The notes: generated by a model from the sequence alone, not told the origin. DNA of 64,000 nucleotides from an uncultured bacterium (GCA_963707865.1 OY970175.1:556011-620010); one strand, 5' to 3'. Numbered from the stretch's first letter, positions 31,595 through 34,743 are shown. Program-made: numbers and translations.

Positions 31595-31708
31595 TTAACT
31601 CAATAGTAGCAAATCTTCCTCCGGCGTGCCACCTGTGGATACCTACTGCGCACGGACAAAAGCTTATATCCGACGCTCTTTGAAACAACTCATTTATCGC
31701 ACAATAAT

Positions 31709-31951
31709 TTATTGCCCGCTTCCTTTCTTTGTCCAATCTTCAAATTTCGTATCTTCCGAATAGCCGAGTTCGAGCGCAAGCTTTCTTAAGTCTTCTTTTC
31801 GAATATCGGTAGATTTGTCAGGCTCCAAAAGGGAACAAACAAAATTATAAAGTATCGATAAATCCTTTTTTTGTGCTACGTCGGTTTCTCCGACTTGCGT
31901 CAAAGCTTTTTCAATAGCCGTTTTTTGGTTTTTAAGAAAGTCTTTGTTCAT
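31709..31951 (-). CDS. hypothetical small protein (80 aa), AT-rich
   Basis: ORF only. It lies in the low-GC inserted segment. Confidence 0.35.
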   Translation of the reverse strand: MNKDFLKNQKTAIEKALTQVGETDVAQKKDLSILYNFVCSLLEPDKSTDIRKEDLRKLALELGYSEDTKFEDWTKKGSGQ

Positions 31952-32049
31952 AGCTCAATGATGATATTTCTTCATTAAATGCCAATTAAAGCGGATGTGT
32001 ATAAGTGCCTCTTGTTGCATTATAGCTTATCTGGGCGTATAATATTACT

Positions 32050-32121
32050 AAAGGTTCCACCCCGCTAACAAGAGCTCTCGGGCTCTTTCCCGAAAGGGAA
32101 TAGGCGGGGTGGTCATTTTTT
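32050..32121 (+). ncRNA. candidate small RNA (promoter + three-way structure + U-run)
   Basis: TTGCAT - 17 bp - TATAAT (about 32015-32043). It is followed by the CCACCCCGC...GCGGGGTGG outer stem enclosing two hairpins (one closes with a GAAA loop), then TCATTTTTT. Confidence 0.35.
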
Positions 32122-32931
32122 ATGTTGGTAGTAAATCGTGTCACCCTTTTCAAAAACGTCAAAGCAGCTTTTTATCTTGTCTTTGATTTCGGCGTGCGGG
32201 CGTCCTTCGTTCCTTTCCACCTTCACATAGATTGCCCAACCACAATAGTCGGCGATTTGGCAATTGATGTCCATTCCGGTGTTATGAAAATAGACGTAGA
32301 AAGGTTTTTGAAATGTCTTGAAGTATCGCTTTAAGCTCTTGAGCACATAGCCCCGCTTGTTATTTGTGAAAACCGAACCCAAGACGACCACGATTTTTTC
32401 CACTTTGTTGGTATATCGCCTAAATATATACTGCAAAAGTATCTGAGATATTTTGTGGTAGAACTTTTCTTCGTAGTGTATGGTACTGATTTTAAAGCCT
32501 TTGCCGTCTTTATGCGTTTTAAGGTCGTATTCCAAATATAAAGACGGGTTAGCTTTATTCTTTTGCGCGATAACGCAATCGATTTCGAAGTCGCCTAAGC
32601 CTTTGATATTTTTGAAAACCACATCCCTCACCTTTTGCTGGTCTTCGGTAGCGTGGAAATATTCTTGGTCAACCCCATCACTTAAGAGCTCATACTTTAA
32701 TTTAGAAAAGACGTCCCTTGCCTCAAGCGGCTGGACGGTCGATATGGCCGTGAGCACGAAATATTTCGTTCCATTCGGGCTGAAATCGAAATTGCCCGAC
32801 TCGTCAATAAAAATGTAAAGGGTTTTGCCATCGAGCTCTTCCATCAAACCATTATAAATCCAAAGAAAGTTTTTATACCAGTAAATCGTGGACTTTGGGG
32901 CGCGATGACACTGTTCGAAAACCATAGCCAT
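32113..32931 (-). CDS. DUF3800-family protein
   Basis: Contains LYIFIDESGNFDF (DUF3800 signature). AT-rich. The track ORF begins at 32982, inside the IS terminal repeat, so a downstream Met is more plausible. Confidence 0.55.
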   Translation of the reverse strand: MAMVFEQCHRAPKSTIYWYKNFLWIYNGLMEELDGKTLYIFIDESGNFDFSPNGTKYFVLTAISTVQPLEARDVFSKLKYELLSDGVDQEYFHATEDQQKVRDVVFKNIKGLGDFEIDCVIAQKNKANPSLYLEYDLKTHKDGKGFKISTIHYEEKFYHKISQILLQYIFRRYTNKVEKIVVVLGSVFTNNKRGYVLKSLKRYFKTFQKPFYVYFHNTGMDINCQIADYCGWAIYVKVERNEGRPHAEIKDKIKSCFDVFEKGDTIYYQHKK

Positions 32932-32976
32932 AGCAGTGCCTTCTCGAGCGAAGCGATGAATGCGGAAGTGTTTTAG

Positions 32977-33966
32977 GCACACACATATGGCGGACTAGGT
33001 TTTGAACTCGGCAAGCGCTTCGTTCGGCGTCTTGCCATTCAGGCCACAGTGTTCAAGGTTGTTGTACTCAGTATTCCACCATCGTACCCTTTGGCGCAAA
33101 TCCTTTGCCGAAGCAAATGTTGTTTCGTGGTAGAGCGTTCTCTGGTCCGACCCATGCGAGCGTTCGACCTTGCCGTTCTGCGCGGGCTTCCCCGGATCGA
33201 TGAGGTAGTGCACGATGCCGCGTTCGGCGCAGAAGCGGTCCAAAGCGTGTTGATGGGCAGGCGAAAGATCCGCCCGCTTGTACGTGCCCGTGTACCGGTT
33301 GGTGAAGGTCGCATGGTTGTCCGTCTTCACGCCGGTGATCCGATATTCAAATCGCCGGATGACATCCGCAAGAAAGAGGAGGGTGTTCTGCGTGGACTCT
33401 TCCTCGAAAATCCGGAGGTAGCGCCAGCGGGAGGCACAATCGATCGCCGTATATTGAAAATATGCACGTCCCGCAACGGTTCCCGGCACATGCTTCACGT
33501 CGATCTCCATGAGGTCGCCAGGCTTCCAGGTGGCTTTGATATATTTGTACGTGATCTTTTTGGTACGATACTTCCGCACGAGCCTTTCTGTCTTCAAGAT
33601 TTTTCCGATGGTGCGCTCATGGATATGGATGCCCACCTTTTCGAGCTTCCAATGCAGTTTGAGCGCGCAGACCTTTCTCTTCTTGCGCAACGCGATGATT
33701 GCTTCCTTGATGCTGATCGGTGTTTCCTTGGGCGAGGTCTTCGGCCGGGTGGAACGCGGTTCAAGCGCTGATTCACCGCCACGCCGGTATGCCTGCAGCC
33801 ACCGCTCCAAGGTCCGCTTCCCATACGGAAACACCTTCATCACTTCGGTGGTGCTTGTGCGACCTTTTACAATGGGTTCCACCCACCGCACCCGCTCTTG
33901 TTTGATATTCTCAGCCATATGGATCGACATTCCCCGATTGTACGGGAGTCCGCCATATGTGTGTGC
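32977..33966 (-). mobile_element. IS481-family insertion sequence (about 990 bp)
   Basis: Perfect 20-bp terminal inverted repeats (GCACACACATATGGCGGACT) flank an rve-integrase transposase. There is no clear target duplication. Confidence 0.75.
32995..33930 (-). CDS. IS481-family transposase (DDE/rve integrase core)
   Basis: N-terminal HTH region, then a DDE core (IDVKHVP...GVKTDNH...GKPAQNGKVERSH). Confidence 0.85.
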   Translation of the reverse strand: MSIHMAENIKQERVRWVEPIVKGRTSTTEVMKVFPYGKRTLERWLQAYRRGGESALEPRSTRPKTSPKETPISIKEAIIALRKKRKVCALKLHWKLEKVGIHIHERTIGKILKTERLVRKYRTKKITYKYIKATWKPGDLMEIDVKHVPGTVAGRAYFQYTAIDCASRWRYLRIFEEESTQNTLLFLADVIRRFEYRITGVKTDNHATFTNRYTGTYKRADLSPAHQHALDRFCAERGIVHYLIDPGKPAQNGKVERSHGSDQRTLYHETTFASAKDLRQRVRWWNTEYNNLEHCGLNGKTPNEALAEFKT

Positions 33967-34083
33967 ACATTACCGAAGATGATTGACAGTGCCGGCATAT
34001 TATGTTATCATGTCCCCAGCGCGGGTAAGTAAGATAAGGGGCGCATCGGGCTCATTACGGGCCTCGAAAATAAGGAGGACGCT

Positions 34084-34470
34084 ATGACAGGCAAGGTTTT
34101 TGTGTTGATCGTATTTGGTTTAAGTTTCCTCTGGTACTCAATGGAGCGAGACCACGAGAGAGCGGCGGCTACGGCTGAGAAACTGATGGCATCCGCACCC
34201 GTTTACACGGCCTATGGATCTGTGATCTCGGCGCAGGAAGTTCCGAATGACTACGATGGCGGGAATCACCCGCAATCAATCATCGGGTTCGCCTGCGACA
34301 ATGGCAGCATCATCACCTTTCGGTTTGCGACGGTTGAGCCGCGGCTCCGGCAAGGTCTGCGTGCTAGGATTGTTTACAAGCCGCTCATAAATGGATACAC
34401 CCAGAGGCAAGTTGTTTTAGCCGACCAACCGTATTTCCTGTTAGTTAGTGCCGAACGCCTTGACCGCTGA
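34084..34470 (+). CDS. hypothetical membrane-anchored protein (128 aa)
   Basis: N-terminal TM (VFVLIVFGLSFLWY) and a reasonable RBS (AAGGAGGA). Confidence 0.4.
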   Translation: MTGKVFVLIVFGLSFLWYSMERDHERAAATAEKLMASAPVYTAYGSVISAQEVPNDYDGGNHPQSIIGFACDNGSIITFRFATVEPRLRQGLRARIVYKPLINGYTQRQVVLADQPYFLLVSAERLDR

Positions 34471-34743
34471 CTGACCAGATTCGGCGGAACGAAGCGCAGT
34501 CCACTTCTACCTCGTTCTCGTTTTTATCGGCACTTTGGAAAGATGGCGTCTTGGGGTTGGTCATGGACCAGCCCCATTTCTTTTCGTGGCTGGAGAATTG
34601 GTGGAAGGTTCGGTGTCCTGGCGAGGACGGCGATATAAAAATCGAACTAATTTTGAAAAAGTAAAAAATCAAGGCATCTCGGTCTGTCCGATACTAAATG
34701 TAGCCTGCTCTGTTTCTAGAATCCGAGCCGATCGCCCAAACCA

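Follow-up and report, generated by a model that had tools for sequence, protein, structure and literature searches.

Introduction

Adjacent, co-transcribed ftsA and ftsZ genes are the textbook arrangement of this pair of division genes. Here we describe a locus in which the two are split, in a 64,000-nt stretch of DNA (the window; GCA_963707865.1 OY970175.1:556011-620010, with positions counted from its first letter) from a Paceibacteria-type genome of ~0.9 Mb (Patescibacteria/candidate phyla radiation, CPR). The intervening 3.1 kb hold a gene for a DUF3800 protein, a structured small RNA (sRNA) on the strand opposite to it, two small open reading frames (ORFs), orf80 and orf128, and an insertion sequence (IS) of the IS481 family.

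Published work describes DUF3800 as a nuclease with an RNase-H fold and with links to retron VII, Cas12a2, Cas12a3 and Cas13 loci (PMC7736814, PMC10910872, PMC12669027, PMC13594972), and the retron-VII protein was reported with the Methanocaldococcus jannaschii RNase HII structure 1EKE as its best template (PMC7736814). Eleven RNA motifs associated with DUF3800 genes are also on record, DUF3800-IX being one of them and DUF3800-I occurring in one orientation or the other and at one side of the gene or the other (Weinberg et al. 2017, PMC5737381). The function of these motifs is explicitly given as unknown in the literature (PMC5737381, PMC7736814, PMC10910872, PMC12669027, PMC13594972).

We consider it probable that the locus records a recent, strain-specific composite insertion, tolerated through a private ftsZ promoter and carrying a paired DUF3800 gene and sRNA.

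Results

A composite insertion separates ftsA and ftsZ

Related loci (65) were collected by an FtsA protein scan of one genome per species, and all proved to be metagenome-assembled genomes of Patescibacteria labelled Minisyncoccia, Paceibacterota, Parcubacteria or Liptonbacteria. Window proteins were compared with these loci by tblastn, and insertion breakpoints were taken from blastn. In every related locus with both genes the gap between ftsA and ftsZ is ~20-450 bp, except in L003 (1.29 kb) and L004 (1.21 kb); the spacer is short in 61 of 63 loci, across wide divergence. This comparison bears out an earlier note, made on the window sequence alone, which had claimed that a normally adjacent pair is split here by an insertion of ~3 kb. 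The two closest relatives, L001 and L002 (FtsA 97% and 96% identical at the amino acid level, DNA ~91%), have a 75-bp spacer. Alignment to them by blastn ends at 31641 on the ftsZ side and restarts at 34737 on the ftsA side, and the insertion is therefore placed at 31642-34736 (Table 1), leaving as ancestral the 47-bp block upstream of ftsZ and the 7 bp behind the ftsA stop codon.

None of the DUF3800, transposase, orf80 and orf128 genes was found by tblastn within 8 kb on either side of ftsA in the 65 related loci. The case that the earlier note had named as its own refutation, the same genes in relatives at ordinary GC content, was looked for in these loci and not found. As to base composition, the DUF3800 module (31642-32968) has 41.1% GC, against 53.5% for the whole window, 54.8% for the IS and 51.3% for the orf128 segment, so that the low GC content ascribed to the whole insert holds for the DUF3800 module and fails for the other two parts. 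The locus is a real case of a strain-specific insertion, in which mobile or accessory DNA has entered a gene pair that is normally tight. It is unusual for ftsA and ftsZ to be split by mobile DNA.

A search of the outer boundaries of the insert for direct or inverted repeats of at least 8 bp (att-like sequences, target duplications) returned none, and a search for a tRNA at the insertion site of the window was likewise negative. The sequence ACAGACCGAGA (34677-34687), inside the ftsA-side boundary, matches the ancestral spacer at 11 of 12 positions, which may be due to chance and is not relied on.

ftsZ retains a conserved promoter-like motif in the untouched part of the spacer

The 47 bp retained upstream of ftsZ include an extended -10 box, TGCTACTAT, 8 nt before the start codon. 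The motif TGnTAnnnT occurs within 45 nt of the ftsZ ATG in 30 of the 34 relatives with FtsZ identity of at least 68%, at a background frequency of 1.9% per 45-nt window, and in none of 29 more distant relatives. Its distance to the ATG is 6-8 nt in 14 relatives, and the window copy is intact. A promoter of its own, which the note had named beside read-through as a way for ftsZ to be expressed, is what this conservation points to, and the short spacing would imply a leaderless or near-leaderless ftsZ mRNA. In this clade ftsZ is probably not dependent on read-through from ftsA.

The spacers of the two exceptional relatives carry cargo of other kinds. In L003 (9298-10446) this comprises an ExoIII-like (Exo_endo_phos) gene of low GC content together with a tRNA-Pro and a terminator-like hairpin, the latter two directly upstream of the ancestral ftsZ-proximal block; in L004 (9248-9985) it is an unrelated, unassigned ORF of 245 aa. 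The spacer probably tolerates cargo because ftsZ has its own promoter in the untouched 47 bp.

Could ftsZ instead be expressed mainly by read-through, from promoters of the insert (orf80, DUF3800, IS) or from ftsA? The textbook co-transcription of the pair favours this, as do the common orientation of orf80, DUF3800, transposase and ftsA with ftsZ and a search that found no strong terminator between orf80 and ftsZ. We nevertheless regard read-through as unlikely to be the main source of ftsZ transcripts, given the extended -10 motif that 30 of 34 relatives conserve right in front of the ATG, the terminator hairpin just upstream of the ancestral block in L003, and the convergent orf128, whose consensus promoter would oppose transcription from ftsA. 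Lying 3.1 kb apart, with a convergent gene that has its own promoter and terminator between them, ftsA and ftsZ lack the adjacency of a co-transcribed operon.

A structured RNA lies antisense to the end of the DUF3800 gene

The candidate sRNA listed in the note proved real. The Rfam model DUF3800-IX (RF02968) aligns at 32056-32117 on the + strand over model positions 1-67, covering P1 and two hairpins, with 27.9 bits against a gathering score of 36.8. In four relatives the model scores 28.0-29.2 bits at the matching position and with unchanged orientation, and none of 20 loci passes the gathering threshold. With RF02968 the RNA shares its location next to DUF3800 and its secondary-structure topology. 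Because it fails the RF02968 threshold and has a different invariant sequence, we treat it as a Patescibacterial variant and not as a confirmed DUF3800-IX member.

Alignments of 48 distinct copies (A2) and of a trimmed set of 44 (A4) resolve the sRNA into a three-way junction of P1 (9 bp), P2 (5 bp) and P3 (3-5 bp, with a GNRA loop). The P2 helix is invariant (GAGCC/GGCUC), and the unpaired segments, with the conserved single strands 5' AAAGGUUCC, ACAA and AUAG, vary little or not at all even where protein identity falls to ~50%. Covariation supports P1 and P3: nine of the 18 pairs have changed on both sides, 98.8% of cells are paired versus 86% in shuffles, compensatory cells number 90 versus 23 in shuffles, and shifting the pairing partners lowers pairing to 30-60%. 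The minimum free energy (MFE) fold of the window sRNA is the same three-way junction (z = -5.2). Pairing of the conserved 5' AAAGG to the U-run at the 3' end closes the whole sRNA (32050-32121) in this fold, an arrangement that could either shield the ends or compete with a function as terminator.

Four features argue for an RNA antisense to DUF3800. First, G-U cells outnumber A-C cells by 24 to 6, and four of the six A-C cells fall in two misaligned rows. Second, a TAnnnT motif lies at a fixed distance upstream on the + strand, its first and last T each at least 90% conserved. Third, the covarying structure is formed by the + strand only. Lastly, the T-run is also on the + strand. The sRNA would accordingly be transcribed from ~32050 to ~32121, ending on the U-run over the last three codons of DUF3800.

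The covariance model R1 has one match in the window (88.5 bits). Of 77 DUF3800 loci, 76, among them loci outside the seed alignment, carry one match at the stop codon, on the antisense strand; in the 843 kb of control ftsA loci it has none. On the viral contig L153 (4001-4778), where the DUF3800 protein is 29% identical, R1 also matches at the stop codon (42.5 bits); no other viral contig of IMG/VR has a relative of this DUF3800. In another locus (L069, 2980-3102) a LOOT RNA (RF03000, 64.5 bits, above threshold) lies ~3 kb from the DUF3800-sRNA module, amid small hypothetical genes and tRNAs.

A simpler account would make the hairpin behind DUF3800 a mere terminator, of DUF3800 or bidirectional transcription, with no independent sRNA. 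It does abut the stop codon, its GC-rich stem has an adjacent T-run, and a scan for terminators marks part of it on the - strand. Against this, the element is a three-way junction with an invariant P2, a GNRA-capped P3 and near-invariant unpaired segments. The G-U/A-C asymmetry, the T-run and the fixed-distance -10 box all fall on the strand antisense to DUF3800, the covarying fold forms on the + strand only, and in the window, as in four relatives, the DUF3800-IX match is oriented that way. We therefore think a terminator-only role quite improbable.

The DUF3800 protein is a predicted RNase-H-like nuclease

The DUF3800 gene claimed by the note is borne out by Pfam PF12686 (E 1.5e-9; 39.1 bits versus a cut-off of 21), and the protein is a bona fide DUF3800. 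The ORF as called encodes 289 aa and starts at a GTG within the IS repeat; homologues and DNA homology start at the ATG at 32844, and the start was moved there, giving a protein of 243 aa. Its detectable homologues number 704, the named ones all from Patescibacteria, and PF12686 is present in all 120 of those listed. An alignment of 28 sequences shows D14, E15, E67, D68, D192, Q196 and D199 to be invariant, with FIDESGN (D14, E15) forming the N-terminal DE motif and NCQIADY (Q196, D199) the C-terminal QxxD motif.

The AlphaFold2 (AF2) model of the protein (predicted local distance difference test score, pLDDT, 82.9; predicted template modelling score, pTM, 0.81) has as its best PDB fold match the M. 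jannaschii RNase HII structure 1EKE (E 2.3e-5; template modelling score, TM, ~0.5). Comparison of the DUF3800 profile with PDB sequences returned nothing meaningful, only the fold comparison being informative. We predict from the model that the protein is an RNase-H-like nuclease. The sole PADLOC match is to DUF3800_VII (32 bits). Identity as a type VII retron was rejected, since Pfam shows no reverse transcriptase domain among the ORFs of the insert and of its flanks. A phage origin of the module is not supported either, with this DUF3800 clade carried by one weak viral locus only.

orf80 accompanies DUF3800 in the closest clade

Every ORF that the note had named is present where it had been placed, among them the 80-aa ORF and the 128-aa ORF on the plus strand. 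In close homologues the order DUF3800, a gap of ~100-160 nt and an ORF of 76-80 aa recurs. Of 80 metagenome loci, 23 have an orf80 homologue, placed 103-161 nt downstream of DUF3800, and these are confined to the closest clade, with DUF3800 identity of at least ~58%; the count of ~23 comes from rounds 0-1 of an iterative hidden Markov model search of translated loci, round 3 being contaminated by over-extended ORFs. This is the only recurrent downstream gene cluster beside DUF3800. A word-index search with orf80 found four proteins only. Its AF2 model has four helices (pLDDT 80.6), for which a fold search gave no match at E<1, and Pfam, NCBIfam, PHROG and PADLOC gave none for the sequence. This gene order makes orf80 a putative accessory protein to the DUF3800 module, restricted to the closest clade.

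Elsewhere the DUF3800 module, which has spread horizontally, turns up in unrelated genomic contexts. In L124 (838-3885), L102 (1815-3617) and similar loci the DUF3800-sRNA pair is followed immediately by a large ORF (~1,015 or ~600 aa), whose N-terminus, as read by eye, resembles restriction-enzyme (HsdR-like) proteins and hints at a defence-island context. In L089 (3668-4492) and L092 (2123-2947) an orf80-like sequence lies within a 274-aa ORF call, which could be a fusion or an over-extended ORF.

The IS probably arrived separately

The intact IS481-type element of the note, with perfect 20-bp inverted repeats and an rve transposase, stands, although it is longer than the repeats: it spans 32969-33974, reaching 8 nt beyond them at each end, and the outermost 8 nt of both ends are not inverted repeats. 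The repeat sequence has two matches in the window versus 0.01 expected by chance. Terminal inverted repeats and a length of ~1 kb are as in the IS481 family, and the left terminus, TGT, lies within the family's range (PMC10045372); the opposite end is not ACA. The best NCBIfam family of the transposase is transpos_IS481 (E 3e-62; 210.7 bits, below the 224-bit equivalog cut-off), followed by IS21 with 78 bits. The IS is probably an ordinary IS481-family member.

We read the GAAG repeats on both sides of the element as a 4-bp target duplication, a length that falls within the IS481 range of 2-15 bp (PMC10045372). Of the two things that the note had proposed to search for, a candidate target-site duplication was found and further copies of the IS were not, the element being single in the window. 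Relatives of the transposase number 6,744 at E<=1e-20, mostly on contigs of ~1 kb; named ones include Kaiserbacteria and Adlerbacteria, and the IS looks native to the Patescibacteria group. It sits in the ~230-bp region between the divergent DUF3800 and orf128 genes, 124 bp upstream of the DUF3800 start codon. Its arrival was probably a later, separate event, and the IS is very unlikely to have carried the insert.

Three accounts of how the insert arose compete with this one. An assembly artefact, or a chimera formed at the repeated IS, might be suspected since IS relatives lie mostly on ~1-kb contigs, as expected of assembly-breaking repeats. The independently assembled Logan contig L066 (run ERR10755942), however, is 100% identical to 31493-32997 and links ftsZ to orf80, the RNA and DUF3800 across the ftsZ-side junction, which argues against an artefact there; L066 terminates within the IS repeat, and the note's concern about the assembly is answered for the ftsZ side. 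The 4-bp repeat around the IS is as expected of a true in-situ insertion, and a chimera at the IS would leave unexplained the foreign DNA on both sides of it, each part joined cleanly to ancestral spacer. We consider an artefact very improbable. Just as little speaks for delivery of the whole 3.1 kb as one unit by the IS481 element, through composite or one-ended transposition: the IS does encode the sole recombinase of the insert, but it is present as one copy in mid-insert, the 4-bp repeat brackets the IS only, and the outer boundaries bear no IS-like repeats. Least credible is an ancestral origin of the intervening genes with deletion in relatives, for although L003 and L004 also have cargo between ftsA and ftsZ, that cargo is unrelated, the spacer is short in 61 of 63 loci, and the DUF3800 module lies 12 GC points under the genome and occurs in unrelated contexts elsewhere.

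orf128 and the neighbourhood of the division genes

orf128 has one solid homologue among 1.84 billion representative proteins, and scans of Pfam, PADLOC, NCBIfam and PHROG gave no family match. Exact-protein record look-ups returned no entry for FtsZ, the transposase (two start variants) or orf128.

In this genome ftsA and ftsZ lie outside any mur/ftsQ division and cell wall (dcw) cluster, with ybeY and yqeY upstream and rmuC downstream on the opposite strand (36500-37481, 28593-29639). Four further stretches near the division genes are missing from L001 and L002 (27360-28545, 29610-30295, 36075-36635 and 37490-38228). They contain two low-GC small ORFs (one matching phrog_1244), an NYN-domain nuclease gene (Pfam, PADLOC NYN), a 122-aa ORF with no assignment, located between ybeY and ftsA, and a HAD hydrolase. 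The intergenic gaps of this genome seem often to hold small islets specific to the strain.

Table 1. Features of the ftsZ-ftsA region of the window
Feature	Position	Strand	Basis or remark
ftsZ (432 aa)	30296-31594	-	Pfam Tubulin and FtsZ_C; 95% aa identity to L001 and L002
Retained ancestral ftsA-ftsZ spacer block, 47 bp	31595-31641	-	blastn homology to L001 and L002 up to 31641
Extended -10 box TGCTACTAT (candidate ftsZ promoter)	31611->31603	-	8 nt before ftsZ ATG, within retained block
Strain-specific composite insertion, 3,095 bp	31642-34736	strandless	absent in L001, L002 and 61/63 related loci
orf80, small four-helix protein (80 aa)	31709-31951	-	homologues downstream of DUF3800
Promoter-like site of orf80, TTGGCA-16-CATCAT	31985-31958	-	sequence scan
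sRNA -10 box TATAAT	32038-32043	+	upstream at fixed distance
Structured sRNA, ~72 nt, DUF3800-IX-like	32048-32123	+	Rfam sub-threshold match and own covariance model R1
sRNA U-run	32116-32121	+	overlaps DUF3800 stop codon
DUF3800 protein (243 aa), RNase-H-like predicted nuclease	32113-32844	-	Pfam PF12686
Flanking 4-bp repeat GAAG	32965-32968 and 33975-33978		both sides of homology-defined IS ends
IS481-family insertion sequence, 1,006 bp	32969-33974	-	ends from ~78% nt homology to four related copies, L154-L157
Perfect 20-nt inverted repeats	32977-32996 and 33947-33966		sequence
Transposase (rve-type)	32995-33930	-	Pfam rve, rve_3, HTH_28/32; NCBIfam IS481
Sigma-70-type promoter of orf128, TTGACA-17-TATCAT with TG	33983-34011	+	11/12 consensus matches
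Ribosome-binding site of orf128, AAGGAGGA	6 nt before ATG	+	sequence
orf128 (128 aa), near-orphan, hydrophobic N-terminus	34084-34470	+	transcribed towards ftsA
Intrinsic-terminator-like hairpin behind orf128	34552-34576	+	11-bp stem, then TTTCTTTT
ftsA (414 aa)	34744-35988	-	Pfam FtsA and SHS2_FTSA; 97% aa identity to L001

Discussion

We propose the following history for the locus. From an ancestral state of ftsA, a 75-bp spacer and ftsZ, ~2.1 kb comprising the DUF3800 module and orf128 would have been gained in one or two events, and an IS481-family element would then have transposed into the divergent promoter region between DUF3800 and orf128. Throughout, ftsZ would have been transcribed from a private extended -10 promoter abutting its start codon, in the untouched 47 bp, and would never have relied on read-through from ftsA. 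The spacer would thus be a permissive landing site, used independently by two sister lineages as well. Foreign DNA has been taken up between two essential division genes at least three independent times in the clade, despite a genome of ~0.9 Mb, and a private ftsZ promoter as the likely reason is a testable statement on the expression of division genes in Patescibacteria.

As to function, the DUF3800 protein and the sRNA may act together as a protein-RNA pair, in which the sRNA would be made from its own -10 box, fold into the three-way junction and terminate on the U-run overlapping the DUF3800 stop codon. The pair would most likely be an RNA-bound or RNA-controlled nuclease of the defence or addiction type. 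A more far-reaching idea, which we put forward tentatively and think rather doubtful as a whole, is that DUF3800 and its convergent sRNA, here with orf80, constitute a self-contained RNA-dependent RNase-H-like defence or addiction system spreading horizontally through Patescibacteria, with the ftsA-ftsZ spacer, shielded by a ftsZ promoter of leaderless type, as a recurrent landing pad in this lineage.

Several points weigh against the history and function proposed here. Independent assembly support reaches the ftsZ-side junction only and not the ftsA side. The 4-bp duplication rests on the single IS copy of the window, and the related copy L155 is flanked by no target duplication. The ~2.1-kb cargo comes without flanking repeats or a dedicated integrase, and orf128 might be a non-functional orphan. 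The ftsZ promoter with its leaderless start, like the start and end of the sRNA, is read from sequence conservation. Lastly, a defence or addiction role has as its only PADLOC match the retron-VII DUF3800 model, with no reverse transcriptase present.

Each component of the insert is of a known kind, the IS and the orphan gene being ordinary, and earlier publications already cover the RNA motifs associated with DUF3800 as well as its links to retrons and CRISPR (PMC5737381, PMC7736814, PMC10910872, PMC12669027). The most useful lead is the DUF3800-sRNA pair, as a compact construct for experiments. DUF3800-associated RNAs have been without a proposed function since 2017, and the pairing seen here is essentially obligatory (76 of 77 loci). 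The strand, promoter, terminator and structure of the sRNA are all defined, if in part by conservation, and the variant, below the Rfam threshold, is widespread in Patescibacteria. If the more far-reaching idea above is true, the 1.2-kb module would be a minimal, tractable entry to what DUF3800-associated RNAs do.

Set beside known systems, the locus agrees with the canonical dcw-cluster ftsA-ftsZ of Escherichia coli and Bacillus subtilis in gene order and orientation, and in the adjacency of the two genes in nearly all relatives. It differs in that the pair is isolated, without mur or ftsQ, that ftsZ has an apparent private promoter abutting its ATG, and that the spacer takes cargo. The IS resembles the IS481 family in its one rve/DDE transposase with N-terminal HTH domains, its length of ~1 kb, its terminal inverted repeats and one TGT terminus, whereas its score falls under the equivalog cut-off (210.7 versus 224), its duplication is of 4 bp, 6 bp being usual, and its outer 8 nt do not form inverted repeats.

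Like DUF3800-IX (RF02968), the sRNA adjoins a DUF3800 gene, is closed by a long helix with two hairpins inside it, has a UAG-type junction ahead of its 3' arm and trails off in a U-run. Unlike it, the window-type RNA never reaches the gathering score (27.9-29.2 versus 36.8 bits), its invariant P2 and 5' AAAGGUUCC depart from the Rfam consensus, and its position is fixed, convergent and overlapping the stop codon. The protein shares with those of retron VII, the CRISPR accessory TPR-DUF3800 and Csx32 the Pfam DUF3800 domain, the DE and QxxD motifs and a predicted RNase H/HII-like fold (PMC7736814, PMC10910872, PMC12669027). In contrast to those systems, the neighbourhood shows neither a reverse transcriptase nor a CRISPR array, a cas gene or a TPR domain; the DUF3800 protein here, of 243 aa, stands alone but for an sRNA of its own and, within this clade, a helical partner of 80 aa. 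Type III toxin-antitoxin systems (ToxIN) offer a functional analogy only, since the RNA here neither forms a tandem repeat array nor lies upstream of the protein gene, and the protein is RNase-H-like and not of the ToxN/AbiEii-type fold. What the two have in common is a predicted nuclease with a dedicated small structured RNA, horizontally mobile and sometimes found near restriction systems.

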